Shown here: positions 1,113-63,774 of the stretch, piece by piece
Numbering within the stretch: the stretch's first letter is position 1
How the letters are laid out: every line of letters begins with the position of its first letter
Sequence record: PV636258.1
Length of the DNA stretch: 64,000 nucleotides
Origin: a phage
Strand: one strand, 5' to 3'
Notes under the pieces: model-generated
Told to the model about the DNA's origin: nothing
Database searches by the model: none
What the model saw: the letters and a program-made list of their open reading frames with translations, nothing else
Program-made: the position numbers and the translations under genes

Positions 1113-1520
1113 ATGCGTTATGTAGACCGCATGCTCGGCGAAAATGAACATGTCATCGCTTTCACCCGCCCGACTTGGTGGAGCGGTTTTTGGATTTATG
1201 TTCTGGTTATTTTAACGATTATCCCAACATTTGGATTCAGCTTGTTATTTCTGATACCAACAATTTTAAATGTGTTGACAACTGAATTCGCAGTCACCAA
1301 CAAGCGTGTTATTGTCAAACGGGGATTTATTCGTCGTGATGCTGATGAACTCCGTCTTGGTAAAGTAGAAACCATTAAGGTGGACCAGTCTATTACAGGC
1401 CGTATCTTGAAGTTTTCGACCATCAGTGTTATTGGTACGGGCGGTACTCGCCTGTTGGCTACAGGTTGTGCTAAAGGGAACGAATTCCGTCAAAAAATTT
1501 ATGATCATCTGGGTGACTAA
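1113..1520 (+). CDS. Membrane protein, bacterial PH-like
   Basis: N-terminal hydrophobic hairpin (two predicted TM helices) then soluble domain; AAGGAA SD before ATG. Confidence 0.45.
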   Translation: MRYVDRMLGENEHVIAFTRPTWWSGFWIYVLVILTIIPTFGFSLLFLIPTILNVLTTEFAVTNKRVIVKRGFIRRDADELRLGKVETIKVDQSITGRILKFSTISVIGTGGTRLLATGCAKGNEFRQKIYDHLGD

Positions 1521-1739
1521 ATGATTACTGCAGGATACACCGTCGATTTGTATTGTGAGTGTGTTGAATGCAAATCTTGTAATTGGGCTTGGGAAGAACA
1601 TCACCCCAGATGTGGGATGAAGTCTTATGCTGGTGAATCTTGGGGAGACTGTGCTAGACAAGCCCGTGCTGATGGGTGGATGATATGCAGGGACAAACAA
1701 ACTTGCTTTGCCCCTGGACATCCAAGGAAATCAGGGTAA
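1521..1739 (+). CDS. Small Cys-rich protein (possible zinc-binding)
   Basis: 72 aa with several Cys including CECVECKSC; ATG start immediately after previous stop. Confidence 0.4.
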   Translation: MITAGYTVDLYCECVECKSCNWAWEEHHPRCGMKSYAGESWGDCARQARADGWMICRDKQTCFAPGHPRKSG

Positions 1740-2351
1740 TAACAAACCATCATCTTCCGATTGCGTTGGTTGTTTATTAGCAGTTTCCTTCTTCATTTGC
1801 TCTTTCAACGCATTAATCCTTTGAGCGCGGCGTCGATCTTCCATTTCGACTTCGCGCTTTTTCTTAGAACGAAGAGCAAATTGTTTTTTAACTTCTGGGT
1901 CTTCACCTGGCACCAAATGTTCTTCTGTCCAGATAATGAATTTCCAACCCACCTTTGCACAATGTTCTTTAGTTGCTGTCCACTTTGCCTGATTTACCAA
2001 CCAAGTGCGCATTGAATTATTGAATGTTGATTCCTTCATCGTTTTAGTTTTGCGAGGTTCTTTAATCTGGTCTTTGGGTTTTATTTCAATAAGAGTAATT
2101 TGTAATTCATCGGAATCCTGCCGACGAGTCCAAACCTTCAAATCCATGAAATAACGATGGGCGCGGCCATCAACCGGAGATATGTAAGGGATTACACAAG
2201 TTTCCGAACCCCACTTCACGATAGCAGGATTCATGTCACAGAATTTGAATGCAACCAATTCTAAAGAGGAACGAAACACGATATCTTTTACGTCTCCGAC
2301 ATATTTTTGAGGATTTACGGGGACATACTTCCCCTGCAAATACATAGCCAT
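1731..2351 (-). CDS. gp4-like head completion protein (PD-(D/E)xK-like N-terminal domain)
   Basis: Pattern FRSSLEL...VKW.SE...IPY...HRYF.D...IEIKPK resembles the T4 gp4/gp50/gp65 family as recalled; AGGA SD. Confidence 0.5.
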   Translation of the reverse strand: MAMYLQGKYVPVNPQKYVGDVKDIVFRSSLELVAFKFCDMNPAIVKWGSETCVIPYISPVDGRAHRYFMDLKVWTRRQDSDELQITLIEIKPKDQIKEPRKTKTMKESTFNNSMRTWLVNQAKWTATKEHCAKVGWKFIIWTEEHLVPGEDPEVKKQFALRSKKKREVEMEDRRRAQRINALKEQMKKETANKQPTQSEDDGLLLP

Positions 2352-3944: not shown

Positions 3945-5329
3945 TCGAAAATAAAGAATCCCAGGACGGAATTTTAACTCCGTCCACAACATTTGATTTG
4001 AAATATATGGCGATATTACCACACACGCCTGAAGGCGGTACTCCCAAGCCTTATGACCTTTCATCGTTGTTTCAAGAATTCAACGTATATCAGGATCTTG
4101 GTCTGGAAGGGAATGCTTCACCGTCGCTGACAGCTAATATTCTGATCAAAGAAGGCTGGGATATATTGGATACAATGCCAATCCTCGGAGGTGAGGAAGT
4201 AGTGGTATCGTTCAAATCTCCTGCAGCTTCTGATTACACTACGCTTTCATTGCGAGTCAGTCGGGTAGGAAGAGTTGCTGATGAATCGAACTCTTCTTCG
4301 AAAAAGGCATTCTGGTTACACTTGGTAACAACAGACGCGTATCGAGATAGCATGTTGCGTAAATCTCTTGGATTAAGCGGTTCTTATTCTGAGATGGCAG
4401 CTAAGATCTTTGAGCAACTGAATTCACGCACCAAATTTGAAGACATAGATCCTTCATATGGGATACAAGAAAGGTTCGCTACCCCTCTTTGGCCTGTACT
4501 CCGCTCCATAGATTATATGGCCAGCCGTGCATATGACGAATTATTCATGCCGTTCGTTTTCTATGAAGACTTTACGGGTTATCACTTCAAAAGCATGACG
4601 ACGTTGTTCAACCAGGGCAACCAGTCTATGACTGCTGAAGAGAAGCAAGAGGCTTCTATTGAAAAGAAATTCTTCCGAGACCCTCAAGACGCGCCGTTGA
4701 TGCAGGATAACAATTTCAACTCAGAACGTTTCATGCGGACTATAATCAAGGCTGAAAAGAAACTGGCGCGTGATCAATACATGGCGAATTATCGGGATAT
4801 CTTGGCAGTGAACGAGCGCGTGTATGACTTTAGTACAAAATCCACGACAGCGACCCAACGCATTTATTCAGAATGGTTTGACAGCACTGCTCACCTTGAT
4901 CCTTTCCCTTTGTTCTCTGATCAATTCGACCGCGAGAACGTTAGGTACATTGAAGCGCAACCGGATGGTGCCGAACAAATAGATTACGCACGACGCGTTA
5001 TAGAATTCAGCCTCGCGTCAACGGTTATGCGTTTGCTGGTCGTGGGGGATAACCGTCTGAATGTTGGGCAGGTTTATTATATTGAAGATTTGTCGAACCG
5101 CCCGAAATCTAATGAAAACATTGCCGAGTTAAGTAAGTTATCAACAGGCCATTATATCGTCACAAAGATACGCCACAAGATTTCACGCCTGACAAATGAT
5201 TATCAATGCGTCGCTGAGATTGCCAAAGATAGTATGATCCAGAAGGTCTTACCGCCTCAGACTGGTCAAACTGTGGCTTCTACACCAACTCCGACGCCAA
5301 TAGAGAAAGGACAAGCCCAGAAGGTCTGA
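3941..5329 (+). CDS. Hypothetical protein (462 aa), possible structural
   Basis: ATG overlapping previous stop (ATGA); no motif recognised. Confidence 0.45.
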   Translation: MIENKESQDGILTPSTTFDLKYMAILPHTPEGGTPKPYDLSSLFQEFNVYQDLGLEGNASPSLTANILIKEGWDILDTMPILGGEEVVVSFKSPAASDYTTLSLRVSRVGRVADESNSSSKKAFWLHLVTTDAYRDSMLRKSLGLSGSYSEMAAKIFEQLNSRTKFEDIDPSYGIQERFATPLWPVLRSIDYMASRAYDELFMPFVFYEDFTGYHFKSMTTLFNQGNQSMTAEEKQEASIEKKFFRDPQDAPLMQDNNFNSERFMRTIIKAEKKLARDQYMANYRDILAVNERVYDFSTKSTTATQRIYSEWFDSTAHLDPFPLFSDQFDRENVRYIEAQPDGAEQIDYARRVIEFSLASTVMRLLVVGDNRLNVGQVYYIEDLSNRPKSNENIAELSKLSTGHYIVTKIRHKISRLTNDYQCVAEIAKDSMIQKVLPPQTGQTVASTPTPTPIEKGQAQKV

Positions 5330-5339
5330 GAGGTGACAA

Positions 5340-7280
5340 ATGGCAGATAACAATCAACCGACACCAGGGCAGCAAGACATCGTCAAGGTTTTGGATAAAA
5401 TCAAAAAAGAAATGATGGAGCGCAAGCAATTGCGCGCCCAATCCGAGACGAATAAACAGCTCGCAGATGTCAACAAACAACTGCAATCTCTGAAGACACG
5501 CCAGGCGTCTAATCAGGAGCAGAAAGTACCGCCAATTAAATTCCCATCGGTGAATGACATCGTCGGTGGGTTCGTTCGCGTTAGTCCTATTTTCACAAGG
5601 GACTATAGCACGTGGATGAAAGACACTGTCAGCCTTTCCAAGGACGGAAATGAAGAACTGATGCGAATCGCAACCAAAATAGAAAAATTTGGCGAAGCGG
5701 CGAATGGTCCTGTTGATGATATGTCTGTTGAATATCTTGACATGATATCAGATCAATTGGGCGCGGCCAACGAAGATAGTCTTGAACGCCTTGATGGATT
5801 AAAGGATAAGCTGGCGTTGGTCGGAGGGGAGATCGTAAACCTGACTGACATAATGCTTCAAACGCATAAGGACACGCTGGATTTCAATAAAGATGCCAGT
5901 AACGAAACTGTTACCCGCCTCGACAGCATTGATGACAAATTGGGATACATGAACGAAGATCTTAATGATACTCTGACACGTATCTATGAAAGTGATCAAA
6001 AATATAGAGAAGAAGAGAAATTCCGTCGTGGCGAAGAAGGTAAGGAAAACAAGAACAACCCAGAGGCTGGTTCTATCCCTCCGTCTGAGCCTAAACAAGA
6101 TGGTCAATCTTCTGGGTTAGGCGCGGCGCTGGGGGCACTCCTTGGACTGGGTGCGTTAAAACTCCTGATGTCCCCATTAAAACTTGTTGGTGGCTTCATT
6201 AAATTATTCATGGGGTTTGGTGCTGGGATCGGCGGGTTGCTTGCGCCTCTGAAAGCAGCAACCAAGATGCTTCGAGTTGGACCTCTGGCGTTAATAACAT
6301 CTGTATTTGAATTCGGTAAAGGTTTCTTTAATGCTAAAGAAATCCTTGGTAAAGCGCAAGTATCGATCGTTGATCGGGTTCAGGCAGGGATAACAGAGCT
6401 GGTCGGTAGTTTCGGGGATCTCGCTGATTGGGTTGCTGAAATATTCGGATGGAACAATGCTGGGTTTGGAAAGGCGTTCCGTGAACAAGTGCTGAAAATG
6501 ACCGAAGCGCCCGTGCGTTGGTTGAACTCGATTGTTGATTGGGTCACCAACGATTTGTTTGCGGGTATCGGGAAGAGTACATCACTGACCGAAATCCCTG
6601 GTAAACTTGCAGACAACTTACAAGGCCAATTGATAAAATTGGTTGATTGGGTAACGGGCGGAATATCAGGATTGATTGATGATGGCATGGCGGCTGCAAA
6701 TAAAGTCGTTGAAGATATGAAGAAAGGATTTGCGGAAAACGTGAAGAAACCATTCTTTAATATGTTGAATGCCATAACCAATGCCATGTTTGATATCGTG
6801 GATAAATTCGTGAGTATCATACCTGATGCTCTGGGTGGTGAAGCAGCCAGGAACAAAATGGCGGAAGCAAGACAGTCTATGCTAATCAGCCAAGACGATA
6901 AGGCTCCTGAGAATGCGTCTACGCCGCCAAGCAGTCAATCACCAGCACAACCCAATGCCAATATCAGCACGTTAACTCCGATGCCTTCTGGGGTGTCCTC
7001 AGACGCTGTCAACGTTACGGATAGAACTTCACAATTGAAAGACGCATACGCGGGAATTGGGGGAGGTACTCTGGGCGGGGCTTATCCGGTTCAAGGAAGA
7101 GCAGCCAATAACATCGAAGAAGTTAAATCCGCCTATGCTAACCCGCCAGCCAGTGTTGTGGTTCCAGTACAACAAAATGTGGACAACTCGAAGAAAGTCA
7201 GTACGACGAACAACTTCAATAGTTCACAGTTGGAGCCGTCCAACCGTACTGATACAGGGCGCATTCTCTGGGATTGGTAA
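5340..7280 (+). CDS. Large coiled-coil protein with central Gly-rich hydrophobic segments (tape-measure-like or membrane-active protein)
   Basis: 646 aa; N-terminal heptad-like repeats rich in D/E/L/K; central stretch GLGAALGALLGLGALKLL...GFGAGIGGLLAPL; GAGAGGTGA SD. Confidence 0.5.
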   Translation: MADNNQPTPGQQDIVKVLDKIKKEMMERKQLRAQSETNKQLADVNKQLQSLKTRQASNQEQKVPPIKFPSVNDIVGGFVRVSPIFTRDYSTWMKDTVSLSKDGNEELMRIATKIEKFGEAANGPVDDMSVEYLDMISDQLGAANEDSLERLDGLKDKLALVGGEIVNLTDIMLQTHKDTLDFNKDASNETVTRLDSIDDKLGYMNEDLNDTLTRIYESDQKYREEEKFRRGEEGKENKNNPEAGSIPPSEPKQDGQSSGLGAALGALLGLGALKLLMSPLKLVGGFIKLFMGFGAGIGGLLAPLKAATKMLRVGPLALITSVFEFGKGFFNAKEILGKAQVSIVDRVQAGITELVGSFGDLADWVAEIFGWNNAGFGKAFREQVLKMTEAPVRWLNSIVDWVTNDLFAGIGKSTSLTEIPGKLADNLQGQLIKLVDWVTGGISGLIDDGMAAANKVVEDMKKGFAENVKKPFFNMLNAITNAMFDIVDKFVSIIPDALGGEAARNKMAEARQSMLISQDDKAPENASTPPSSQSPAQPNANISTLTPMPSGVSSDAVNVTDRTSQLKDAYAGIGGGTLGGAYPVQGRAANNIEEVKSAYANPPASVVVPVQQNVDNSKKVSTTNNFNSSQLEPSNRTDTGRILWDW

Positions 7281-7943
7281 TTAAATTCCGTGGGCAAGGA
7301 TTAGCTCACGGAGTTTTCCTTTTGTGTATTCTGTGTTTTCATCAGGAACAACTGAATTGGTTTTCTTTAATAAAAAAGACTCAGAGTTCCAATAGATGTC
7401 ATCCTTGAGTATTGTATCATATAAATGGATGAAACCCACTACTTTATTCAATCCAACGAGAAACCAAATTGGATAGCGTTTAACAATAATATCTGTCAGT
7501 AAAGGTGGATGCCCATTACCATTTCCTTTGATATATTGGATAAAATTCACGCCTCTTTCTTTTATCTCAGGGATCATATATCTCTCAAAATGTTCAAGAA
7601 AATTATATGAGAAGTTGTCATACAGGCGGCGATATTCATTATAATTTTCTTGGGCCTGTCTTGTAAGTAATGTTGTCACCCACGTCTTTGGTGATTTAAC
7701 AAAGTTGGCAATAATATAATTTTCCACCACTTCACCTTGGGACGATTCGAACCGACGAGCAAGTTTAGCAAATTGTTTGGCCACGCCCTGTTTAGAATAG
7801 AACGTTTCAAACTTGTAATTGTTCATCGGTCCATACAGGCCATAATCAAAGTCTTTTGTGGTGAAATGCAATTTGATCGCCATATAGATGCAATAAACGT
7901 TGAATGCCCTTTCATATTGCATTTTCTCCCACTCAGTTATCAT
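7281..7943 (-). CDS. gp59-like helicase loading protein (tentative)
   Basis: 220 aa; N-terminal pattern Y.IYMAIKLH...Y resembles T4 gp59 as recalled, and size matches (T4 217 aa). Confidence 0.4.
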   Translation of the reverse strand: MITEWEKMQYERAFNVYCIYMAIKLHFTTKDFDYGLYGPMNNYKFETFYSKQGVAKQFAKLARRFESSQGEVVENYIIANFVKSPKTWVTTLLTRQAQENYNEYRRLYDNFSYNFLEHFERYMIPEIKERGVNFIQYIKGNGNGHPPLLTDIIVKRYPIWFLVGLNKVVGFIHLYDTILKDDIYWNSESFLLKKTNSVVPDENTEYTKGKLRELILAHGI

Positions 7944-8086
7944 GGAGTTTCTCCTTGCGTTTCTGTCTTTGAAGTCGGTGACGTTCTGAGCAAAACTGGT
8001 AGTACTCAGACAGCAATCCTTTCTCCTTTATAAAGAGAATGGCGTTTCGAAAAGCAATTCCAATCTTGGCATATGACGGCGGATTT

Positions 8087-8350
8087 TTACCAACCACGTG
8101 ATCTCTCCTCTGATTTAACGAAACGTTGAAACTCTTCTGTTTTTCCTTGGCGATGAATAAACACCAACGCCAAAATAAAACGACGGAATGATTTTGGGAT
8201 AAGACGATAGCCGTTGGTCCAATTATAAACGACATCAGAACAATTCATCATCTTCATCATTTGCAATTCAGAAACTCCCAACTCCCGCATAATGGTTAAG
8301 AGATGTAATGAGTCATTATTCTTTCTTGGTTGTTTGTCAACAAGTTTCAT
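8087..8350 (-). CDS. Hypothetical protein
   Basis: 87-aa ORF with ATG start; preferred over the overlapping W/C-rich 7933..8235 ORF. Confidence 0.35.
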   Translation of the reverse strand: MKLVDKQPRKNNDSLHLLTIMRELGVSELQMMKMMNCSDVVYNWTNGYRLIPKSFRRFILALVFIHRQGKTEEFQRFVKSEERSRGW

Positions 8351-8427
8351 AATAACACCTGGTAATGATTTCTTGGAATTATACTGCTACTGTCTTTATT
8401 GAATGGGGTTCCGAAGAACCCCAATTT

Positions 8428-9855
8428 TCATGCCGCTTCCAACAACACCAAAATATTTTCGATATATGCTTTCTGGATAGCATAGACTTCAGCCAGTGTA
8501 TTAGCGACTTTCTTGTCTGTGCGTACTTCAACGAGACGTGGAAGGAATAGAGACTTCATGGCGTCATCGGTTTTATCCTGTACGCCATTAGAGAGCACGG
8601 CGGCAATCTTACCAATGAAGTCCTCTTGGTTTTCCCACATTCGTAGTCTCAACTCATCTGAGATCCCCGATACGCCAACAACTAAGAGGCCATCAGAGGT
8701 CTTGCAGAGGAGAGATCCAAATGTCTTGGCGTGCTTCCCTTTCTTATCGGCCTCGTTGAAGCCAACGATTTCAAGGTCACATTCTACTTCCATTTTTAGC
8801 TTTAACCCTTCAGATGATGTTCCATCTTCCCAAGGCATATCTGCGGCCTTACAAATCGTGCCTTCTTCCCGACGAGCCAAAGCGTCTTTGAAGTGTTCGA
8901 CAGCTTCTTCAAATGAATGAACAACACGGGTTTCTTGAACCTGAACCAGTCCGTCATCCCCTTCGAACAACTGTTGTATGATATCAAAACGGCGCTCATA
9001 TGGGGTGTCCACACGCTGAGCATTGAACCAATTATCATACGGCACAACGTCCCATACCCGATAGATCACCTTGTAACGATCTTCCAGGGGTTCACCCGTT
9101 TGGATAACACTGTTGAGCTTACCATTGCCGATAGCCCGAGGCAACACTGTATTCGTTTTCAGATCAATGACGAGCAGTTCACCATGGAAGACGCTTTCAC
9201 CAATCCCCGCATCGTAGATCAGGTCTTTGAAAACCAATGATAGGTTATCAACGGAACCACCCGCAATAAGAGAACCGGAACGAGAACGAATCTCTGGGTC
9301 TCTTCCATAACGACAGATGATGTTGGCAAACATGCCATCTGACTTCAGCTGGCTGAAGACGCCGCGCTTGAAGTCCATCTTCTTCAGCAAGTCAATCGTC
9401 ATGTTATCATAACGGTGATATGGAAGGATATTAATCAGACGCCCTGTACCACCTGCTGCGTTGAATGCTGCGTTTATACCTTTCTCGGCAATTCCCGCTT
9501 TGATGTCTCTGTCGAGTATAATTTGTATCAGGGTACGGTAATCCGGATGGATGTTGGTTGCAGCCTTCGCAAGTTCTTGATCTGCCTTCATCCCACCGAT
9601 CTTGCGTTCGGCCATCATATCGAGAACATCATAAACCTGATCCCAGCTACCAACAACGCCGCGCGAGAGCATGCGAGGGAATGCGTTTAGATTGAATTGA
9701 GTGCGGTAATAAGAACGCATCGGGTCGTAGACGTATTGAAGGAAATCAACCAATTCTGGGTTGTTTCTGAACGCCTCGGTCAGCACAGCTTTCTTGGCGT
9801 TGGTGCCTTTGGTATCGCGAAGATTTTGAATTATTTCTAAAAGAGGAAGCATCAT
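8428..9855 (-). CDS. 30: ATP-dependent DNA ligase (T4 gp30-like)
   Basis: 475 aa; N-terminus MLPLLEIIQNL...TKGTNAKKAVL parallels the T4 ligase N-terminus; candidate adenylation lysine in KSDGM; GGAGAC SD. Confidence 0.8.
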   Translation of the reverse strand: MMLPLLEIIQNLRDTKGTNAKKAVLTEAFRNNPELVDFLQYVYDPMRSYYRTQFNLNAFPRMLSRGVVGSWDQVYDVLDMMAERKIGGMKADQELAKAATNIHPDYRTLIQIILDRDIKAGIAEKGINAAFNAAGGTGRLINILPYHRYDNMTIDLLKKMDFKRGVFSQLKSDGMFANIICRYGRDPEIRSRSGSLIAGGSVDNLSLVFKDLIYDAGIGESVFHGELLVIDLKTNTVLPRAIGNGKLNSVIQTGEPLEDRYKVIYRVWDVVPYDNWFNAQRVDTPYERRFDIIQQLFEGDDGLVQVQETRVVHSFEEAVEHFKDALARREEGTICKAADMPWEDGTSSEGLKLKMEVECDLEIVGFNEADKKGKHAKTFGSLLCKTSDGLLVVGVSGISDELRLRMWENQEDFIGKIAAVLSNGVQDKTDDAMKSLFLPRLVEVRTDKKVANTLAEVYAIQKAYIENILVLLEAA

Positions 9856-9913
9856 GTGTCTCCAGGGTTATTCGTCATGCTATTATAACCCTAGAGACTT
9901 CAATAGAATTATT

Positions 9914-30794: not shown

Positions 30795-31029
30795 TTTGTG
30801 CCCCTATTACGTGCTCCGAGGCTTGTTCATAAGCTGTACGGAGTTCAAGATAAGAATCGGCTAACAGAGGAGATTTTTCATTGCTTCGGTTCATGATTAT
30901 TTGGTGGTTAACGACAGCACGGCGTAATCTGAGTTCTGCCACCCAGAATGCTTTTTGTTTGGCGTGTCCTGGACGGGCGCGTAGGTCGTGATAATGCATA
31001 GAAGCATGATATATTTCAGAGTTGGTCAT
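30787..31029 (-). CDS. Hypothetical protein
   Basis: 80-aa ORF, ATG start, downstream of early promoter. Confidence 0.35.
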   Translation of the reverse strand: MTNSEIYHASMHYHDLRARPGHAKQKAFWVAELRLRRAVVNHQIIMNRSNEKSPLLADSYLELRTAYEQASEHVIGAQNV

Positions 31030-31079
31030 GATGTAGTACCCGCTTTCAATTTGTGGCGTTGGCCAATGAATTACTGGGA

Positions 31080-31108
31080 AGTATAAGCGCAGGATTTATA
31101 GAAGTAAA
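31080..31108 (-). promoter_or_regulatory. Sigma70-like early promoter (minus: TTTACT-N17-TATACT)
   Basis: -35 overlaps the 3' arm/T-tract of the preceding hairpin. Confidence 0.4.
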
Positions 31109-31125
31109 GCCCCTCGATGAGGGGC
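31109..31125 (-). terminator. Stem-loop (GCCCCTC/GAGGGGC)
   Basis: 7-bp inverted repeat read directly. Confidence 0.45.
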
Positions 31126-31133
31126 TGGTCGGG

Positions 31134-31520
31134 TTACTTGATGAAGAGTACCAGAGGCAGGTTTGTGCCCTTGTCTACCACGTACAGAGCGTCATCGCCC
31201 TTCTTGAACATCAGCTGGTCGTTCTCGTACATCAGCTGAGCTTTACGGGCGTCGTTTTGGAAATCTTGGTACAGTTCTGGTTCTTCAGATAACAGTTCCG
31301 GGTCGATCAGGTGCACTTCTTTAGATCGCAACTCTTCCTTGGTCAGCGCCGCCCCGTTACGCAGGGCATCACGCAGGGCACGCAGGATAGAGCGCGGGTA
31401 TCTCTCCCCGTGGACGTTAAACGCAAAGGGGACTTGTTTAAGGAACGCTCTGGACTTCGCCAGGCCTTGGATAGGGAAAGAGATGGTGGCTTCTAATACG
31501 GCTGGTGTGTTCAGATACAT
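31134..31520 (-). CDS. Hypothetical protein
   Basis: 128-aa ORF, ATG start. Confidence 0.4.
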   Translation of the reverse strand: MYLNTPAVLEATISFPIQGLAKSRAFLKQVPFAFNVHGERYPRSILRALRDALRNGAALTKEELRSKEVHLIDPELLSEEPELYQDFQNDARKAQLMYENDQLMFKKGDDALYVVDKGTNLPLVLFIK

Positions 31521-31568
31521 GATATAGTCCTTCTGGTCAAATGTGGCGTTGTTGCCGTGACCTAGAAT

Positions 31569-31596
31569 ACTATAAACCAGGTTTTTGAAAAGTAAA
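31569..31596 (-). promoter_or_regulatory. Sigma70-like early promoter (minus: TTTACT-N16-TATAGT)
   Basis: Immediately follows the hairpin. Confidence 0.4.
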
Positions 31597-31613
31597 GCCC
31601 CTGGGTTAGGGGC
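31595..31613 (-). terminator. Stem-loop (AGCCCCT/AGGGGCT)
   Basis: 7-bp inverted repeat read directly. Confidence 0.45.
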
Positions 31614-37133: not shown

Positions 37134-37200
37134 AAGAAAATACCTCCGCAATGTATGCGAAGGTATTTAAAGTGAAAGTCGAACTTGAGGAACTGCTGGG

Positions 37201-38342: not shown

Positions 38343-38371
38343 ATAATAGTGCATCATTATTGAAGAGTAAA
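38343..38371 (-). promoter_or_regulatory. Sigma70-like early promoter (minus: TTTACT-N17-TATTAT) with AT-rich upstream element
   Basis: Read directly; about 40 nt of A/T-rich sequence upstream of -35. Confidence 0.45.
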
Positions 38372-44772: not shown

Positions 44773-45048
44773 TTAACGACGAAACGGGCGAGACGCGTTT
44801 TGGCGATTGTTGTAATTCTTATCAAATTGTGCCAACGCCGCCGGACTCCATTCGCGTTCCCATTCTTTGTCAACTTCGGTTTGGTTGGCAGGTTCAATCA
44901 TTTCAGCAGTAGGAAAATCGCGTTTCATAATTTCACGCAATTGTTCAGAAGGGGCGGTTTGGGCGTGGACTAATTCTTCACCGTCGTAAACTTTGGCCAT
45001 CAACCATTTGCTGCCGTAACGGATATATGCGTCGAGGATGATTTTCAT
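44773..45048 (-). CDS. Hypothetical protein
   Basis: ATG at 45048 with AGGAAC SD; the track start at 45069 is TTG. Confidence 0.4.
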   Translation of the reverse strand: MKIILDAYIRYGSKWLMAKVYDGEELVHAQTAPSEQLREIMKRDFPTAEMIEPANQTEVDKEWEREWSPAALAQFDKNYNNRQNASRPFRR

Positions 45049-45096
45049 AATGTAGTTCCTGCTTTTCAAGTTGGTGTCGTACTGCTTATGTTTAGA

Positions 45097-45124
45097 ATTA
45101 TACGTGGGTTATTGAAGAAGTAAA
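45097..45124 (-). promoter_or_regulatory. Sigma70-like early promoter (minus: TTTACT-N16-TATAAT)
   Basis: Consensus -10 TATAAT; -35 abuts the hairpin. Confidence 0.45.
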
Positions 45125-45140
45125 GGGGCTTTTGCCCCTT
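45123..45140 (-). terminator. Stem-loop (AAGGGGC-TTTT-GCCCCTT)
   Basis: 7-bp inverted repeat with flanking T-tract. Confidence 0.45.
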
Positions 45141-45152
45141 TTATTGAATAAT

Positions 45153-45791: not shown

Positions 45792-46408
45792 TATCTGGTC
45801 CTCTTGAGTTTCTCAATCGTGCGCTTATTCATGGCGATCACTCCTGGGTCGACCTTTGGGTTTATTGCCATGCCTTTGAAAGACACACATCGTTGAAGAT
45901 ATTTAGCCTTCTTCACGACGTCGGCTGCATAAGAATTGGATTTCTGGTTACGATTGAACCCAGCATTGTAAGAGGAAAGGGATTTGCGGATGTTTTGGTT
46001 ATGATATTCTAGCCAGAAATTCATTTCATCAAGGGCAGCATTGGCAGCATATTCTTGATTGACCAGTAATTTGATCGCGACATTGGCGTAACACTTCTGC
46101 GTTTTGCATCCCTCCCGTTTCCCGACGGTTTGGACGCGATTTTGAAATGCCCCCATATTAGCCGATTTGAGGTTATTCCGCATGGATACAACATCTTCTC
46201 CGGCGCGGCTTTCCCTCCATGATATTGCGGCGAGAGTGAAACCAAGGTCTTGTTGTTTTCCCACGTGATAGGCTGTGGCCATGGTTGAAAGTTGTTGATC
46301 AGAAAACTCATAATCACATTGGGTGGTACTTTGGGAAGCGTGCACACTCCCGCTGGCAATGGTAAAGGTCACGGACAAGGCCATGGCCTTCAACGTTGTC
46401 ATCGTCAT
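45791..46408 (-). CDS. Secreted protein with lytic-transglycosylase-like (SLT) motif
   Basis: N-terminal signal peptide (MTMTTLKAMALSVTFTIASGSVHA); block AISWRESRAG...NMGAFQ resembles the SLT catalytic E-S...G.FQ region. Confidence 0.4.
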   Translation of the reverse strand: MTMTTLKAMALSVTFTIASGSVHASQSTTQCDYEFSDQQLSTMATAYHVGKQQDLGFTLAAISWRESRAGEDVVSMRNNLKSANMGAFQNRVQTVGKREGCKTQKCYANVAIKLLVNQEYAANAALDEMNFWLEYHNQNIRKSLSSYNAGFNRNQKSNSYAADVVKKAKYLQRCVSFKGMAINPKVDPGVIAMNKRTIEKLKRTR

Positions 46409-46474
46409 GATGGCGTTCCTTATGTGTTTGTCGACTTGCAGCTCGCTGGAGCCTCCTGACAGGGTTAAAAGATA

Positions 46475-56797: not shown

Positions 56798-57466
56798 TTA
56801 CACCTCCAGACGGTTACAATGAGAAAGCGCGTTATCAATCTGTTCCCGAGACAGATATTCCAACGGGTTGCGAGAATACGCGTCTAACAGCAGCAGTTGG
56901 AGCACAGCGCGATTACGAGTTTCACTCTCCATCATGATACCGTTCATATGTGGTGAACGGGCTGTCCATACAACATACTGACCTAAATCGTCGTTGGCAG
57001 TCAGGCTAATGCGAAACTGATTACACAATTTGTCGATTAACGCATAATCATATGTGAACGTCCCTTCAGTTTTCCAGCTTGATTTCTTCACCTGAAGAGC
57101 TTCACCACGAGTTCTGAATTCTAACGTCACTCCATGAGTTTCATTGTCGAAATGAACAACTCTCTGAGTTTCATTTTTCAGAGTCCGGTTCATATTATAT
57201 GCGAAGAAACGGGCGTCGATCTCCCTATTGCTCATGGAATTAAAATCGATCGGCCAAAAACGAGCGCGCATAATCGCGCCTTCTGGCAATACAATTAGTC
57301 CATTTTCACGGGAGACATAGCAAAGACGTTTAACTGCAGGGTCAGGATGTTCCACACAATAAACGGAAATTCCAGTGGGAAGGATAGCGTGGGCGACAAC
57401 ACCAGATCTTTCAAAATATAAATTACCCTGGTCAGCCCCGATGATAATACGGCTCTTGTTGTTCAT
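56798..57466 (-). CDS. Hypothetical protein
   Basis: 222-aa ORF, ATG start. Confidence 0.45.
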   Translation of the reverse strand: MNNKSRIIIGADQGNLYFERSGVVAHAILPTGISVYCVEHPDPAVKRLCYVSRENGLIVLPEGAIMRARFWPIDFNSMSNREIDARFFAYNMNRTLKNETQRVVHFDNETHGVTLEFRTRGEALQVKKSSWKTEGTFTYDYALIDKLCNQFRISLTANDDLGQYVVWTARSPHMNGIMMESETRNRAVLQLLLLDAYSRNPLEYLSREQIDNALSHCNRLEV

Positions 57467-57487
57467 AATATAGATCTCTCAAATAAA

Positions 57488-57508
57488 GGCGGTTTAATAA
57501 TAACCGCC
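57488..57508 (-). terminator. Stem-loop (GGCGGTT/AACCGCC)
   Basis: 7-bp inverted repeat with AT-rich loop. Confidence 0.4.
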
Positions 57509-57522
57509 CTTGTATTATAGAA

Positions 57523-58685: not shown

Positions 58686-59371
58686 CTTTCGTTCTCCTTC
58701 ATCATATTATCACAGTCAATTCTTGTTTGCTTGAGTTCACGGGAAAGCCTTGGATCATCAAGATTGACAGACAAATTAGTGGAAAGATCTTTCAAACCAT
58801 TCTGAACACGGTCTTCATAATAATGATCATTTTCCACCAGCCATGCTCTCAGGCCAAGGGCGCGAGTCCGCCATTCCTTTTTCAAACGTCGATCAGATTC
58901 TTGATCAGCACTGTATTCAAATACTCGGATACATTGGTTGCCATCATTGATGAGATCCAGCTGACGTCGGCCAACCTGCACACCTTTTTGTAATGCTGGA
59001 GAAGGAAGAGAACGGCACTGTCTTACGGTCATTCGTCCTTGTGTGACCATACGACCAGTCATGATGAGATCGCCAGCCTCCATGCCTCCTCGGTTAAATT
59101 CTTCGTCGTTCATATATCCTTTCAGGTTGAATGCGCCTTGCTTATATCGATTAAACTCGATACCAGCATTTACAACGGCATCTGTGACATTACCTGTGGC
59201 CCAGAGTTCAGCAAAGTTCTCTATGGAACCAGTTTTGTCTATAGCCACGGCTTGGGAGAACCCAGCACAGTAGGAAAGATCAGACCACAGTTTTTCACCT
59301 GTGGAATTCAGCTTGGCTGTGGCAGGAAGTGCCAGACCAGCCAGCACAACCGCGATGATTAAACGTTTCAT
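58682..59371 (-). CDS. Secreted/periplasmic protein
   Basis: From the ATG at 59371 with AAGGAG SD: signal peptide MKRLIIAVVLAGLALPATA; 229 aa. Confidence 0.5.
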   Translation of the reverse strand: MKRLIIAVVLAGLALPATAKLNSTGEKLWSDLSYCAGFSQAVAIDKTGSIENFAELWATGNVTDAVVNAGIEFNRYKQGAFNLKGYMNDEEFNRGGMEAGDLIMTGRMVTQGRMTVRQCRSLPSPALQKGVQVGRRQLDLINDGNQCIRVFEYSADQESDRRLKKEWRTRALGLRAWLVENDHYYEDRVQNGLKDLSTNLSVNLDDPRLSRELKQTRIDCDNMMKENER

Positions 59372-59399
59372 GGTGATTCTCCTTATTTCATTGGATAAA

Positions 59400-59429
59400 A
59401 TGATAGGGCTGTCACCATGTTGAGTAAAG
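59400..59429 (-). promoter_or_regulatory. Sigma70-like early promoter (minus: TTTACT-N18-TATCAT)
   Basis: Read directly upstream of the secreted-protein gene. Confidence 0.35.
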
Positions 59430-59455
59430 GGTTTCAATAAACTATCGTATTCAGA

Positions 59456-59905
59456 TCAGTATCGACTATCACTGACCGTTCTGTATCGCACACCCTGAAA
59501 CTGTTTAGCGAGTTTAACAAATTCCATCGCTGGCAAATCAACTTTGTAGACCTTCATGCGCTGTTTGCCGTCCATGTTCAACGCAGCGACAAATCGGTGA
59601 GAACCGTCAACAACGTAATTGTCAGAAGACACCCAAACTCGACCCATGGGCTTCTTATTTCTGATCTGCTTCATAATCTTCCAGACCTTCATTTTATTGA
59701 TTTCGTTCTGGGTAAGACGAAGCATTTTGATAGGCACTTGCGCAGCATCTATAGACACGCCGTTGTCTTCAAGATATTTGTGAAAATCTTCTTGTTTGTC
59801 GGCATCGATTTGCGGCATCGAAGAACGAGAAAGCCCGAGGTTCCCAACAGGAATCCTCAGGCCATTTATGATATTCATCCAGTCAATAAAGGATGTAAGG
59901 AACAT
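59456..59905 (-). CDS. ParB-like nuclease domain protein (tentative)
   Basis: 149 aa; block VVDGSHRFVAAL resembles the ParB/Srx DG.HR..A motif. Confidence 0.45.
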   Translation of the reverse strand: MFLTSFIDWMNIINGLRIPVGNLGLSRSSMPQIDADKQEDFHKYLEDNGVSIDAAQVPIKMLRLTQNEINKMKVWKIMKQIRNKKPMGRVWVSSDNYVVDGSHRFVAALNMDGKQRMKVYKVDLPAMEFVKLAKQFQGVRYRTVSDSRY

Positions 59906-59942
59906 GACACACCTCGGGATATAGGGTTATCCCTTAGTTAGT

Positions 59943-60221
59943 TCATTCGGACTTAAACAGCAATTCGCGAACAGAAGTCCCAACGATATTCTGGGTGTTC
60001 AACAAACGAGTTAAATCATCCATGTCATATGCTGAATTGGTGATATGACGCAAGATAATCGCCAACATTCCCTCCAGCGCTCTCCGATTGTTATTCTCTT
60101 CAATGTCAAACTTAATTTCAACAAATCGAGATAGCATTCTGGATTGAGCATTTGTTTCGTTGGTTTTGCTCTGTATAATATCTTTGATTTCCGAACGAGC
60201 AATACTTCTTTGATCTGTCAT
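59943..60221 (-). CDS. Hypothetical protein
   Basis: 92-aa ORF, GAAGGAAC SD. Confidence 0.4.
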   Translation of the reverse strand: MTDQRSIARSEIKDIIQSKTNETNAQSRMLSRFVEIKFDIEENNNRRALEGMLAIILRHITNSAYDMDDLTRLLNTQNIVGTSVRELLFKSE

Positions 60222-60245
60222 GATATAGTTCCTTCATTTCAAATG

Positions 60246-60267
60246 GGCGGGGCAAAGATACCCCGCC
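60246..60267 (-). terminator. GC-rich stem-loop (GGCGGGG/CCCCGCC)
   Basis: 7-bp inverted repeat between two minus-strand genes. Confidence 0.4.
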
Positions 60268-60273
60268 GTGGGT

Positions 60274-60780
60274 TTATAGGGTAATAAGTGATACGGTAAA
60301 AACCATCGTCCCATCTGTTGCCATTTTTCTTGAAACTGGGAAGACGCGAGGCTGGCAGAATATCCATTCTTTCTCCATGGACGCCAAGTCCAGCATATCC
60401 ATTTCTGATTCATCGTCTTTGTTCACAAATTTTTCTAGAGAACCAAAGACATTAAGCCCCTCTGGGAGTCCGTTTCGATGTTTGTAACAAATGCGAGCAA
60501 CAGCTCTGGTTCCATACGATTTAGAAAATTGTTTGGCCACATGCTTCAATTCACTGAAGCTGAGACAAGAATCCCATGTCTGGAACATGTCGCCTCGTTC
60601 AAACATCATCTCTAAACGCACAACGTCCTCTTTAGGCAACCCACGATAAAGTGTGGTCATCTGCGGTTCGCGAAATTCTTGCACCAGATCACGGACGACA
60701 GGAGAAACAGTGCCAGGGCGCATAATATGGGACTTATCATGGACGAGGTAAAATAAATCTTGAATTTGTTGATCGGTCAT
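60274..60780 (-). CDS. Possible mono-ADP-ribosyltransferase (R-S-E type, ModA/ModB-like), tentative
   Basis: From the ATG at 60780 (168 aa): ordered candidate triad TLYRGL (Arg), CLSFSEL (S.S), MEKEW (E.E) with ART-like spacing. Confidence 0.35.
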   Translation of the reverse strand: MTDQQIQDLFYLVHDKSHIMRPGTVSPVVRDLVQEFREPQMTTLYRGLPKEDVVRLEMMFERGDMFQTWDSCLSFSELKHVAKQFSKSYGTRAVARICYKHRNGLPEGLNVFGSLEKFVNKDDESEMDMLDLASMEKEWIFCQPRVFPVSRKMATDGTMVFTVSLITL

Positions 60781-60806
60781 GGTGTAGTTCCTGCATTTCA
60801 AATCGA

Positions 60807-60824
60807 CGGGGTAATCATACCCCG
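60807..60824 (-). terminator. GC-rich stem-loop (CGGGGTA/TACCCCG)
   Basis: 7-bp inverted repeat; overlaps the implausible 5' extension of the track ORF. Confidence 0.4.
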
Positions 60825-60839
60825 CCCTAAGTTATAGAA

Positions 60840-61079
60840 TTAACTGACGTGCTTCAGAAGAGCGAAGAGGATCACGGCCTTGGCTTTCACCTTGCCGACG
60901 ATGCCTGTCTCAACATCGACTTCTTCCGCAACCCACTCTTTACCCTTCTTGCTAATGATGACGTCGCGGCGCTGGACGTATACCTCTTTCGTCGCATACA
61001 CACGACGGAACCCTTTAGCGCGGAGCAAGCCCCAATTACGGTCAATCTCCACTGAAGTTTCTACCATTTTGTTCTTCAT
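60840..61079 (-). CDS. Hypothetical protein
   Basis: 79-aa ORF, ATG start, own promoter. Confidence 0.4.
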   Translation of the reverse strand: MKNKMVETSVEIDRNWGLLRAKGFRRVYATKEVYVQRRDVIISKKGKEWVAEEVDVETGIVGKVKAKAVILFALLKHVS

Positions 61080-61130
61080 GATATAATCTTACCTTTCAAC
61101 CTGGTGAACCCATCGTTCGCCAGTTATTGA

Positions 61131-61159
61131 ATAATACGCATTTGCCTTATAGAAGTAAA
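61131..61159 (-). promoter_or_regulatory. Sigma70-like early promoter (minus: GTTTAC-N17-TATTAT)
   Basis: Read directly. Confidence 0.4.
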
Positions 61160-61174
61160 CCCCTAAAAGTAAAA

Positions 61175-61196
61175 ATCCCCAACGTTTGTTGGGGAT
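61175..61196 (-). terminator. Stem-loop (ATCCCCAAC/GTTGGGGAT)
   Basis: 9-bp perfect inverted repeat followed by T-tract on the minus strand. Confidence 0.5.
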
Positions 61197-61202
61197 CTTC
61201 AG

Positions 61203-61520
61203 TTACTTGCGCAGGGCAACGACGAGTTCAGCTAACTCTCCGAGGGTAGGATCATCTCCATGTTTACCCACCCACTCGTCACTAATTTCTACATCGTACT
61301 CTTCTTCGATTTCCATGACCAGCTCAATCATGTCAAGATCGTCACCGCCGAGATCATTCTTAACCCGTAACGGCGCTAAAGCATCGATATTATCATCAAT
61401 GTTATCAAACTTGTCCTTGTGATCCCCGTTGCGCCAAGTTTCCATGTTCAGGTTGTCACAAGCGTACTGAGCCAGAACACGCATTACTTCAACATAAGTT
61501 GGTTTGTTTGACATAAGCAT
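61203..61520 (-). CDS. Acyl-carrier-protein-like protein with Asp at the phosphopantetheine-attachment position
   Basis: LGGDDLDMIELVMEIEEEYDVEISDE aligns with ACP helix II (GADSLDTVELVMALEEEFD); codons GAC GAT CTT GAC confirm D-D-L-D. Confidence 0.5.
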   Translation of the reverse strand: MLMSNKPTYVEVMRVLAQYACDNLNMETWRNGDHKDKFDNIDDNIDALAPLRVKNDLGGDDLDMIELVMEIEEEYDVEISDEWVGKHGDDPTLGELAELVVALRK

Positions 61521-61533
61521 ATCTCAAAATGAA

Positions 61534-61549
61534 GGCGGGTTTCCCCGCC
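61534..61549 (-). terminator. GC-rich stem-loop (GGCGGG/CCCGCC)
   Basis: 6-bp inverted repeat between the vWA gene stop and the ACP-like gene start. Confidence 0.35.
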
Positions 61550-61557
61550 AGTTGAAT

Positions 61558-63774
61558 TTAGATTTTGACTTCTTTTTCAGCCAGTTCGGCAGTGACGGTG
61601 TATTTCACCCCATCAACTTCCACATCCATAGTGGATTCTTCCAAATCCAGGTCGGTAAACCAACCATGGCCTGCAACAATCCCATAAACTACCTTGGACA
61701 GCGTTTTGTTCAGGGCGCGGACTTCGTTGATAGCTGCTTTTGCTGCGTCTCCGATCCAACTTTCGATCAGCTTTTTCTGAGTCTCTTCCGGTACGCTGGT
61801 GATCATCGGTGATTTAACGAATGCATTGTATTCAGCCAGGGCATTAGCGATCAGCTGATCAGCGACATTCAGTTTTTTACCGTCCGTCTGTTTTTTGATA
61901 ACAGACGCGATGCTCGGCAGTGAAGATGCGCCTTTGATTTTCACATTCAATTCACGACTCATATAGACATCGGTTGATTCTACAGAAGAAGTCTTCGGTG
62001 AAAATCCATAGTCGCGAATGCCGTTTGCTGACAGGAAATCAGCCGCTTCTTTGCCATATTTTGAAGCCAGACCAGTAGCGTTGCCTTTGCCAACCAGTTC
62101 ATCACGGTAGAATTTCAGAACTTTCTGTTTTGCCTTCAATGCTTCACGGCGCACATTGTCTGCAAAGAATTCAGCAGCACTGATATTCTTTGTCATGGCG
62201 CGGTTAACCATTGGGACACTTTCCAGATTTACAATGAAGACTTCCGGCCCACCAAACACATGAACACCCATGGCAGTCAAATCCTGTGCCACCTTAGCCC
62301 GAACAATCGGAGAATCTGCAGTGATAGGCATTGTTTTCAGGTTGATGATACCATCCTTGACAATAGTGTAATTACGATAACGCCAGGTTCCCAGCTCTTC
62401 AGGAAGTTCATATTTCTTCTGTACAAACTCAGGCACAACAACCGTTCCGTGTTGAACTGTCTGCACACTGATGTTAGGACGTTCTGAATTATAGACCAAA
62501 TTGCTGATCGGGACAATCCCTTTATCATCTGCTGGATTGAATTCGGGGGTCCAATCTTCGTGCTCGGCCAGTTTGAGCGCCAGGGCTTTACGCTCTTCTT
62601 TAGAAGTCGCATTCGCAATCTCTTCGGCCAACTTGTCTTCGGTGTCATCAACTTTCTGTACAGTACCGCGCCCAATGCTCTTGTAAGAGAATAGCGGATG
62701 CTTGGTGACGATAGAGACATCTGCTTCAGCCAGATACGTCAGAACATCAACAATGGTGGTGGCGTCTTCAGCCGGAACCATATTATAATCGATGCCATCA
62801 ACTCCTCGCAGAGATTCGTCTACGATAGCCTGAGTCAGATCGACTTTGATGTTGGAATAGTCCTGCTTGGTGAAACAGTTGCTGTATTGTTTGATGAAGC
62901 GGACGTCACCCGTCTTCTTCAGCGCGGCCCAGACCAAATCGGCGTCCATGGTGTACACGCCATAGAATGCCAGCACGTATGCCGCCTGGGTGTCTGCCAG
63001 ATTATCCAGCTGGTCGATCATGTTGGGGTTTACAACCCACAGCTGAGAAACGCTTTCAGGGATGCTGACGTGGCCAATAGGGTGCTCTTCATCAGGATGC
63101 ACGGCTAAAACAGTCGCCACACCATTTTCAACATAAATGGCATGGGTGTAAACCAGGGGAACATCGACCACCACTTTCGGTGAAGAAGTTTTCAGCACGT
63201 TTTCCAATTCGGTCTGATATTCATTCTGGCCTTCGGCGAATACGTGGGTCGCACCAGAACGTTCTGCCATTAGCCCCAGCAGTTCGCGATTACAATACCA
63301 ACCGTATTCGATGAAGGTAATGTTATCAAACGCTTTGGGCAGTACTTCAGCGGCATCCAGGATTTCATTAGAACGCCAGCAGTTGTCATATCCGTCGGTC
63401 ATGAATGCCAGGTTATTAACATAACCAGGTTTATTCAGGCTAATGGCAGTTTCCGCAGCCAATTTCAGCGGCTCAACAAAACCAGTACAACCAGAAGGCT
63501 TCAGGAAACGGTCAATTAGATTATTGATCTCACTGAGATCAGTTGCACTGTTAATCTGACGTCCGGCAAATACCGTTCCGAAATCACCGCGAGATGAAAA
63601 GTAAAGGATGCTCACAGTATCTTCCGGTTTCACCAGGGAAGGCAGGTTCTCCTTCAGATGCTTACGGACTTCTGGAAGTGAACGATACATGGAACCGGAG
63701 ATATCCACAACGATTACATGGTTAGACGGCGCGACGGTCGCAACCGCATTCTTAAATGTTAATGATTCAATCAT
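61558..63774 (-). CDS. Large von Willebrand factor A (vWA) domain protein
   Basis: From the ATG at 63774 (738 aa): N-terminal MIDAS-type motif VIVVDISGSM; the track 5' extension is implausible. Confidence 0.55.
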   Translation of the reverse strand: MIESLTFKNAVATVAPSNHVIVVDISGSMYRSLPEVRKHLKENLPSLVKPEDTVSILYFSSRGDFGTVFAGRQINSATDLSEINNLIDRFLKPSGCTGFVEPLKLAAETAISLNKPGYVNNLAFMTDGYDNCWRSNEILDAAEVLPKAFDNITFIEYGWYCNRELLGLMAERSGATHVFAEGQNEYQTELENVLKTSSPKVVVDVPLVYTHAIYVENGVATVLAVHPDEEHPIGHVSIPESVSQLWVVNPNMIDQLDNLADTQAAYVLAFYGVYTMDADLVWAALKKTGDVRFIKQYSNCFTKQDYSNIKVDLTQAIVDESLRGVDGIDYNMVPAEDATTIVDVLTYLAEADVSIVTKHPLFSYKSIGRGTVQKVDDTEDKLAEEIANATSKEERKALALKLAEHEDWTPEFNPADDKGIVPISNLVYNSERPNISVQTVQHGTVVVPEFVQKKYELPEELGTWRYRNYTIVKDGIINLKTMPITADSPIVRAKVAQDLTAMGVHVFGGPEVFIVNLESVPMVNRAMTKNISAAEFFADNVRREALKAKQKVLKFYRDELVGKGNATGLASKYGKEAADFLSANGIRDYGFSPKTSSVESTDVYMSRELNVKIKGASSLPSIASVIKKQTDGKKLNVADQLIANALAEYNAFVKSPMITSVPEETQKKLIESWIGDAAKAAINEVRALNKTLSKVVYGIVAGHGWFTDLDLEESTMDVEVDGVKYTVTAELAEKEVKI

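Follow-up and report, generated by a model that had tools for sequence, protein, structure and literature searches.

Promoter-early stem-loops (PeSLs) have been described as 'mobile regulatory cassettes' of the T4-type phages RB49/phi1, PST/T4 and nt-1/KVP40 (Arbiol et al. 2010, PMC2839356; Comeau et al. 2014, PMC4122927). For the PST/T4 elements the promoter consensus TTTACW-N17-TAYWAT has been published (PMC4122927). In the founding paper on phage CBA120 it was stated that early promoters and regulatory signals could not be identified (PMC3184105). Here we describe an element of a phage DNA stretch of 64,000 nucleotides (sequence record PV636258.1; the whole stretch is called the window below), which occurs on the minus strand in two copies, cassette A (60210-60274) and cassette B (60769-60833). 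We regard it as probable (about 0.68) that A and B are two PeSL-type cassettes of approximately 60 bp, which serve as patches of homology at the boundaries of gene swaps and which may in addition play roles at the RNA level. Beyond the duplicated regulatory module that had been proposed for this region from the sequence of the window (the original prediction), genome comparisons indicate that related phages gain, lose and exchange genes with the cassettes as the boundaries.

The claim that a near-identical arrangement of hairpin, leader and ATG precedes two neighbouring genes proved correct. A repeat search disclosed a direct repeat of 65 nt, ungapped and with an identity of 82%, whose copies lie 559 bp apart. 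Copy A, which we took as reference, comprises a 6-nt 5' flank, a hairpin, the leader ATTTGAAATGAAGGAACTATATC and the ATG with the first four codons of a gene for a 92-aa protein, while copy B has the same layout upstream of a gene for a 168-aa RNA polymerase ADP-ribosylase-like protein. On the sense strand both begin with the flank harboring the stop codon of the preceding gene (…CTATAA…), followed by the hairpin GGCGGGGTA-NNNN-TRCCCCGYC, one variable base, the leader and the ATG. The leader reads ATTTGAAATG(A/C)AGGAACTAYAYC in front of the ATG and the MTDQ codons or, given more fully, ATTTGAAATG(A/C)AGGAACTA(T/C)A(T/C)C in front of ATG-AC(A/C)-GAT-CAA. The translation initiation regions are located at 60219-60244 (A, ATTTGAAATGAAGGAACTATATC-ATG) and 60778-60803 (B, ATTTGAAATGCAGGAACTACACC-ATG), and the Shine-Dalgarno sequence AGGA is separated from the ATG by the 8-nt spacer ACTAYAYC. 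Contrary to the condition under which the original prediction was to be given up, the similarity extends beyond the Shine-Dalgarno core, spanning the hairpin on one side and on the other 12 coding nucleotides common to A and B (ATGACNGATCAA, encoding MTDQ). The 22-nt leader TTTGAAATGMAGGAACTAYAYC has two exact occurrences, 60222-60243 and 60781-60802, and one further occurrence with three mismatches, 45049-45070, as expected from the leader-like context that had been suspected upstream of the gene 44773..45048; none of 100 shuffled sequences gave any match. The AU-rich stretch ATTTGAAA was invariant in all 20 distinct A- and B-type cassettes that were aligned.

Apart from MTDQ, the 92-aa and 168-aa proteins have nothing in common: BLASTP revealed no similarity between them, and they belong to different PHROGs. 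A gene duplication as the source of the repeat was thus ruled out; it is the cassette that was duplicated and not the gene. Along with the recurrence of this type of module elsewhere in the genome, this agrees with the duplicated regulatory modules of the original prediction. A search of positions 59000-62000 against Rfam 15 gave no match with an E-value up to 1 on either strand. The 2.8-kb stretch around the repeat shows 99.6% identity to Salmonella phage Chennai (Kuttervirus, Ackermannviridae) and 95-98% identity to CBA120, PM10 and other Kuttervirus phages, and the whole genome of Chennai was used as a stand-in for the full genome of the window phage. A genome-wide consensus of ribosome-binding sites was rejected as an explanation because CTAYAYY-ATG is confined to 13 of 223 Chennai genes; the average upstream profile of all 223 genes disclosed only a weak GGGA…TATATC tendency. 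A late promoter in the …CTATAA… flank was dropped as well, as matches to TATAAATA vary between 5 and 7 of 8 positions among relatives.

Hairpin A (60246-60267, minus strand; GGCGGGGTA-tctt-TGCCCCGCC) and hairpin B (60805-60826, minus strand; GGCGGGGTA-tgat-TACCCCGTC, with one G.U pair) possess G+C stems of 9 bp with predicted energies of -19.2 kcal/mol (z -4.45) and -17.0 kcal/mol (z -4.52), respectively. They are located 6 nt (A) and 13 nt (B) downstream of the preceding stop codon, and the predicted folds leave the Shine-Dalgarno sequence unpaired. The hairpin word CCCCGCC, which had been assigned to both copies, holds for A, while hairpin B closes with a G.U wobble (…CCCCGTC), so that only one of its arms matches CCCCGCC/GGCGGGG. 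Within the alignment of 20 distinct cassettes, the stem was paired in 99.4% of the cells. Stem pair 2-21 occurred as G-C, G.U and A-U, and every one-sided change in the stem resulted in G.U, which fits a structure existing at the RNA level. The case for the hairpins rests on stability, conservation and wobble-only changes, not on covariation. The scans called neither a canonical sigma-70 promoter nor an intrinsic terminator at A and B; the tails CATTTGAA and GATTTGAA lack the U-rich tract of an intrinsic terminator. The third GGCGGG hairpin that had been grouped with them does exist at 61534-61549 (minus strand; GGCGGG-gaaa-CCCGCC followed by TTCATTTT), between the genes for the vWA protein and the acyl carrier protein, but it is of a different kind. 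It has a T-run, was called terminator-like by the scan and shares with A and B just the GGCGGG word and a loosely similar tail. Its Taipeivirus counterpart, GCCGGG…CCCGGC, shows a compensatory change and is annotated there as a terminator.

The tetraloop and its closing pairs were encountered in both orientations. When the cassettes of 3HA11, ZQ1, L008 and L111 were compared with window positions 60805-60826, GGGG-TATGATTA-CCCC and GGGG-TAATCATA-CCCC turned out to be exact reverse complements, which implies flipping mediated by a hairpin or cruciform, or a crossover within the stem, at the DNA level.

Comparison of the neighbourhood with related phages yielded matches in 272 records. Since the collection contains GenBank/RefSeq duplicates, these and the following record counts do not stand for independent lineages. 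The 92-aa gene was found in 121 records, denV in 100, the full-length ADP-ribosylase gene in 56 phage records and the gene arrangement of the window itself in about 47 (BLAST). In SilasIsHot and one selz record the 1200-nt query was covered in 641-642 bp, which is 559/558 bp shorter, and in 3HA11 a query part of 1186 nt was covered in 628 bp (558 bp shorter). This difference equals the repeat period, and the ADP-ribosylase gene is missing in these relatives. SilasIsHot and 3HA11 instead harbor a single hybrid cassette, in which the 5' flank of B (TAATTCTATAA…) is joined to the 92-aa gene. The gene behind the B-type cassette is denV in moki, Ds9CZ and KWBSE43-6, homology stopping after ATGACC; denV encodes a pyrimidine-dimer glycosylase (Pfam Pyr_excise) and follows a B-type cassette in moki and many other phages. 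In ZQ1, L008 and L113 the A-type cassette after the ADP-ribosylase gene serves a different gene (MKKLI…). The B-type cassette itself was always located at the 3' end of the 79-aa gene (60840..61079, minus strand; phrog_804) across Kuttervirus, Limestonevirus, Taipeivirus and Aglimvirinae, and B-type cassettes preceded at least five ORF (open reading frame) starts (MTDQQ, MTRIN, MTDQR, MKKLI and a truncated MISVEG). Which small genes occupy the slot from the 79-aa to the 149-aa gene varies among phages; they are ADP-ribosylase-like, denV or of unknown kind. Whole ORFs are inserted, deleted or replaced among related phages at the cassette, which is thus a portable patch of homology, and the tandem pair in the window is the footprint of such an event.

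The cassette is also better conserved than its cargo. Between moki and the Taipeivirus KWBSE43-6, 47 of 49 positions from the hairpin to the ATG are identical, and the adjacent denV gene shows 79% identity; either strong constraint or recent exchange would account for this. In L111 both copies share one leader sequence, unlike in the window. The B cassette of CBA120 carries a GAAGGAA leader like that of A and C187. Leader variants common to A and B within genomes suggest an exchange between the copies.

Some relatives show further rearrangements at the slot. In PMBT18 (1203..1763) and PhiSH19 the first ~70 bp of the ADP-ribosylase gene remain and are fused to a different gene body; in the annotation of PMBT18 the start of that gene falls within the B hairpin (ATGGCGGGGTATGAT) and is probably incorrect. 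In STML-13-1 (~1186-1270) the ATG of the B cassette continues in frame into what look like the seven final codons of another gene (ATGATCTCTGTCGAGGGTATAAT), after which the next ATG comes, and this fusion appears to be a deletion ending exactly at the start codon of the cassette. In CBA120 and several relatives the 149-aa gene is separated from its neighbour by an additional gene for 54 aa (orf136, ~290-350 bp; window 59438-59455 versus CBA120 segment 1473-1843). For orf136 a cassette-mediated insertion was ruled out because the insertion is not flanked by cassette repeats; not every indel at this locus is therefore cassette-mediated.

The module is not restricted to A and B. CTAYAYYATG occurred eight times in the window, always on the minus strand (0.82 expected). 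Copies of the leader elsewhere in Chennai precede the gene 135750..136214 (one mismatch) and the counterpart of the window gene 44773..45048. A pattern scan with TTTACT-N16-18-TAnnnT gave eight matches at seven distinct sites, again all on the minus strand (1.1 expected), at 11813-11841, 31080-31108, 31567-31596, 38343-38371, 45097-45124, 59400-59428 and 61131-61159. Most of these sites are fused to an upstream terminator-like hairpin, GGGGC…GCCCC, whose T-run merges into TTTACT, and TTCAATAA/TTCTATAA is found downstream. We consider the seven sites to be candidates for the early promoters used in this phage family. Such a site is found 24-56 nt upstream of five of the eight CTAYAYY-ATG leaders in the window and stands there instead of the hairpin or besides it, while A, B and a cassette at 57464-57509 have the hairpin and no TTTACT promoter. 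The latter (minus strand) reads TAATTCTATAAT-acaa-GGGCGGTT-attatta-AACCGCC-tttATTTGAGAGATCTATATT-ATG. A full cassette resides at 45046-45141 (minus strand) upstream of the gene 44773..45048 and comprises a terminator hairpin, TTTACT-N16-TATAAT, a leader of ~45 nt and CTTGAAAAGCAGGAACTACATT-ATG.

Gene replacement was observed at these cassettes, too. A tandem pair of terminator-promoter-leader cassettes at 31027-31613 (minus strand) flanks a 128-aa gene which is absent in moki, where the pair is collapsed to one hybrid cassette. At the loci of 44773..45048 and 135750..136214, moki has kept terminator, promoter and leader and carries a different ORF after the ATG; altogether, Chennai/moki homology ends at the ATG at three cassette loci. 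Breakpoints between the two genomes within 30 nt of the ATG were found for 4 of 12 CTAYAYY-ATG genes as compared to 12 of 175 others (one-sided Fisher p = 0.012), and all four genes with the strict 22-nt leader showed a breakpoint at most 8 nt from the ATG or inside the leader. In IMG/VR, protein-anchored retrieval gave three loci and DNA-pattern scans gave more, mostly chance matches outside Ackermannviridae; by the pattern scans, the contigs with true cassettes were all of a size typical of Ackermannviridae (152-162 kb where listed). In this database at least seven different N-termini follow the promoter-leader cassette of the 135750 locus.

A second class of hairpins was noticed alongside, long ones of the type (T)AAATACC…GGTATTT ending 0-5 nt before the ATG. 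One lies in the window at 37138-37168 (minus strand), upstream of an endolysin-like gene; others belong to the Chennai genes 4156..6282, 6386..9889, 21907.., 32776.. and 133971... Their 5' arm begins in a late-promoter-like TAAATA/TATAAATA, and the 3' arm holds the Shine-Dalgarno sequence. In the e/soc/I-TevI arrangement of T4, the ribosome site is hidden in the read-through RNA and the late transcript starts inside the hairpin, and the long hairpins look like this arrangement.

How the cassettes could work can be outlined from their position. The minus-strand gene order is vWA protein, acyl carrier protein, 79-aa, 168-aa, 92-aa and 149-aa protein. The cargo between the copies, the 168-aa gene (60274..60780, minus strand), matches phrog_832 (E 8.6e-16), and its product exhibits the pattern R…S-x-S…E-x-E by eye (LYRG, LSFSE, EKEW). 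According to the CBA120 paper, ViI-like phages lack Alt/ModA homologues (PMC3184105). The 92-aa gene of unknown function (59943..60221, minus strand; phrog_4458) follows cassette A. The promoter-like sequence TTTACT-N17-TATTAT at 61131-61159 (minus strand), preceded by a terminator-like hairpin at 61175-61196, is probably the promoter of the 79-aa gene and, through read-through, also serves the genes that follow B and A, so that the 79-aa, 168-aa and 92-aa genes would be transcribed together. Hairpins B and A would then form in the polycistronic RNA just past each stop codon, where they probably function as a pause site or weak attenuator, as a barrier to 3' exonucleases and as a structural insulator. 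The insulator may keep the AU-rich leader single-stranded whatever ORF lies upstream, and such a leader would offer each incoming ORF a ready-made, context-independent ribosome-binding site. Because they have no U-tract, the hairpins should be weak attenuators at most, and they more plausibly act as pause site, exonuclease barrier or insulator. An attenuating or stabilising hairpin would be expected to leave transcript 3' ends at its base, or 5' ends generated by processing within AUUUGAAA. As neither a recognisable sigma-70 promoter nor a U-tract terminator is present, A and B resemble promoter-poor 'half' cassettes that lie within an operon. As to the DNA, a homologous crossover within the cassette may have led to the gain or loss of the 559-bp unit consisting of cassette and ADP-ribosylase-like gene or, by an alternative route, the unit integrated as a circular intermediate.

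A number of points weigh against interpreting A and B as PeSL-type cassettes with RNA roles. The terminator scan called neither hairpin, no U-tract following them (CAUUUGAA and GAUUUGAA), and the sigma-70 scan called no promoter at A or B, the best -35 candidates reaching 2-3 of 6 positions. With no U-tract, attenuation by the hairpins is an assumption. Covariation support is statistically weak, as 101 of 500 shuffles reached the observed score and five of the nine pairs are invariant. In the literature we found no data on transcription start sites, transcript ends, stability or expression for Ackermannviridae phages. Recent exchange, and not selection, could be the reason why the cassette is so highly conserved, and the event at the tandem pair may have been either a gain or a loss of the 559-bp unit. 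The association of the strict leader with breakpoints (four of four) is a post hoc observation in which a single event accounts for two of the genes; moreover, the genome-wide statistics are based on 223 Chennai genes called by a simple ORF heuristic.

Among the other explanations, a full PeSL with an embedded promoter survives best. It is unlikely on the whole, but for B we regard it as a serious alternative. The -10 region would reside in the hairpin loop (TATGAT in B, formed by the loop and flanking stem bases; TATCTT in A) and be accompanied by a weak or factor-dependent upstream -35 region, TTC(A/T)ATAA/TAATTC. Read-through RNA would fold and be attenuated, while transcripts begun in the 3' arm would lack the hairpin and carry a leader of ~30 nt. 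Out of 104 hairpins upstream of Chennai genes, 11 contain a loop hexamer matching TAnnnT in at least 5 of 6 positions on the sense strand (four of them a perfect TATAAT), compared to two in antisense. When these hairpins are lined up on the hexamer, allowing a spacer of 17 nt, TTCwATAA recurs in most of them at about -33 to -25, and both B and the cassette at 57464-57509 have TAATTC-N17-TATGAT/TATTAT. TATGAT is kept in 13 of 14 distinct aligned B-type cassettes from three genera. The PeSLs of RB49/phi1 most often have their stem-loop between -35 and -10 or overlapping the -10 region (PMC2839356). However, the -35 candidates are poor (TAATTC, 2 of 6; TACCCT), an extended -10 region is lacking, and the sigma-70 scan remained empty. 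TATCTT of A agrees in only 4 of 6 positions. In the B-type cassette of 3HA11 and in three A-type cassettes the loop is inverted (TAATCATA), which destroys the hexamer and leaves the cassette intact. Finally, no MotA/AsiA-type activator is known from this phage family (PMC3184105).

The original prediction had also raised a shared translational operator, in which hairpin, ATTTGAAA, Shine-Dalgarno sequence and AUG would be bound by a phage RNA-binding protein that co-represses early accessory genes, a RegA homologue or a gp43-type hairpin binder being candidates. We judge this improbable. A RegA-type operator is possible in principle, since the phage family encodes a RegA homologue (PF01818, E 4e-35); in Chennai it directly follows the gp62 homologue on the distal side, an order common to all T4 relatives (PMC3014915). 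Its gene (126653..127117, outside the window) is labelled hypothetical in Chennai and translational repressor in moki. The 2011 CBA120 paper identified no RNA-level regulators besides RNase H (PMC3184105). The invariance of ATTTGAAA and the conservation from hairpin to ATG (96% versus 79% for the neighbouring coding sequence) would suit an operator, and that of T4 gene 43 is likewise a hairpin beside the initiation region (PMC3014915). On the other hand, the sites bound by RegA in T4 lack structure, are rich in A+U and combine a 5' poly(A) tract with the AUG (AAAAUUAUGUAC, AAAUUAUGAUU) (PMC3014915), whereas the leader …GGAACUAUAUCAUGAC has a C at -1 and none of their poly(A)/AAUUAUG character. 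The leader is absent from the homologues of classical RegA targets (clamp loader, sliding clamp), and it occurs without a hairpin at 45046-45070 and at the C187 locus.

RegB-directed cleavage of the leader was considered as well and dropped, because the leader contains no GGAG and the RegB label in relatives looks unreliable. The 'RegB endoribonuclease' of Chennai and moki (window ~45800-46420, minus strand; Chennai 101119..101736) matches the Pfam SLT transglycosylase (E 1.6e-4) and falls in a PHROG of unknown function, not of RegB.

Quite improbable, too, is that the unit of hairpin, ATTTGAAA and leader constitutes a dedicated recognition site for a phage factor which actively mobilises or co-regulates promoterless ORF cassettes in operons; such a factor could be a structure-specific nuclease, a recombination mediator or a RegA-like repressor. 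If so, a virulent phage would possess an integron-like cassette system without integrase, and hairpin extrusion during such events would give rise to the minute loop inversions as a by-product.

The weakest explanation, that plain intrinsic terminators and independently optimised ribosome-binding sites resemble each other by convergence and not by descent or mobility, can draw on the position of the G+C-rich hairpins just past stop codons, on their terminator-grade stability, on the orthologous B hairpin of KWBSE43-6, which ARNOLD annotated as a terminator, and on the genuinely terminator-like third hairpin, but it appears largely refuted by the 82% identity over 65 ungapped nt including loop, spacer and first four codons (without any shuffle match), by an indel of exactly the repeat period and the hybrid cassettes in relatives, by the lack of a U-tract at A and B, and by the fact that termination, if complete, would switch off the genes further down the unit, for which no separate promoter exists.

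If A and B are PeSL-type cassettes, the PeSL idea is extended from T4-like phages to a second, distantly related myovirus family, which suggests that cassette-mediated shuffling is general in large virulent phages with T4-type recombination. We found no report of PeSL cassettes in Ackermannviridae, and the PeSL papers do not mention ViI-like phages; an earlier description of some of the motifs is possible, and a 2012 paper on 'Viunalikevirus' is said to mention conserved regulatory sequences. Kuttervirus and other ViI-like phages are widely isolated for the biocontrol of Salmonella, E. coli O157, Dickeya and Klebsiella, and the cassettes would explain where and how accessory genes come and go in them, as in the slot where the ADP-ribosylase-like gene alternates with the UV-repair glycosylase DenV. 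For annotation, the motif should help to find true start codons, at least one record starting a gene inside the hairpin, and for engineering the cassettes may provide natural 'landing pads' with a built-in insulated ribosome-binding site.

Several known systems share part of these properties. With the translational operators of T4 the cassettes have in common a conserved element over the initiation region of several early genes, some with an adjacent hairpin, and the presence of a RegA homologue (PMC3014915), but the leader is unlike the described RegA sites, and the hairpin is dispensable in some copies. A further parallel can be drawn to integrons.

An integron gene cassette consists of a promoterless ORF and a hairpin-forming attC site. 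Similarly, a promoterless ORF travels here with one hairpin-forming repeat and enters downstream of a resident promoter, and a circular intermediate would yield flanking direct repeats. In contrast to integrons, neither an integrase nor another site-specific recombinase is evident, and the repeat is ~60 bp of ordinary homology, usable by the general recombination of the phage, which carries a ribosome-binding site. Early intercistronic hairpins of T4 and REP-type hairpins of enterobacteria protect upstream mRNA; they too are stable G+C hairpins located right after stop codons of polycistronic messages without an efficient U-tract. Unlike A and B they are not fused to a conserved leader and start codon, and we know of no case in which they serve as gene-swap boundaries in a like manner.

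The closest match is the PeSL itself. The cassettes described here differ from the published ones in their host family, as Ackermannviridae (Kuttervirus) were outside the scope of the PeSL papers, in the lack of a recognisable -35/-10 pair in A and B, which lie inside an operon, in a conservation that covers a long leader (ATTTGAAA…ACTAYAYC) and even the first codons, and in a hairpin loop existing in both orientations. PeSLs are characterised, besides, by promoter and terminator activity shown in experiments and by the formation of cassette mini-circles, properties that are putative for the cassettes described here. Common to both are short repeated intergenic units reaching from the upstream stop codon to the Shine-Dalgarno sequence and ATG of the next gene, a stem-loop of a G-run and a C-run (here GGCGGGGTA…TRCCCCGYC, -17 to -19 kcal/mol) and a concentration beside small accessory genes and ORFans at the boundaries of indels and replacements, with crossovers inside the element. 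Neighbouring full cassettes use TTTACT-N17-TAYWAT, and A and B resemble the 'half' or degraded PeSLs which the PeSL papers report near indels. At the sequence level, A and B thus display all features of a PeSL apart from a clear promoter, and the finding is a sound and useful, if not surprising, extension of this known type of element.

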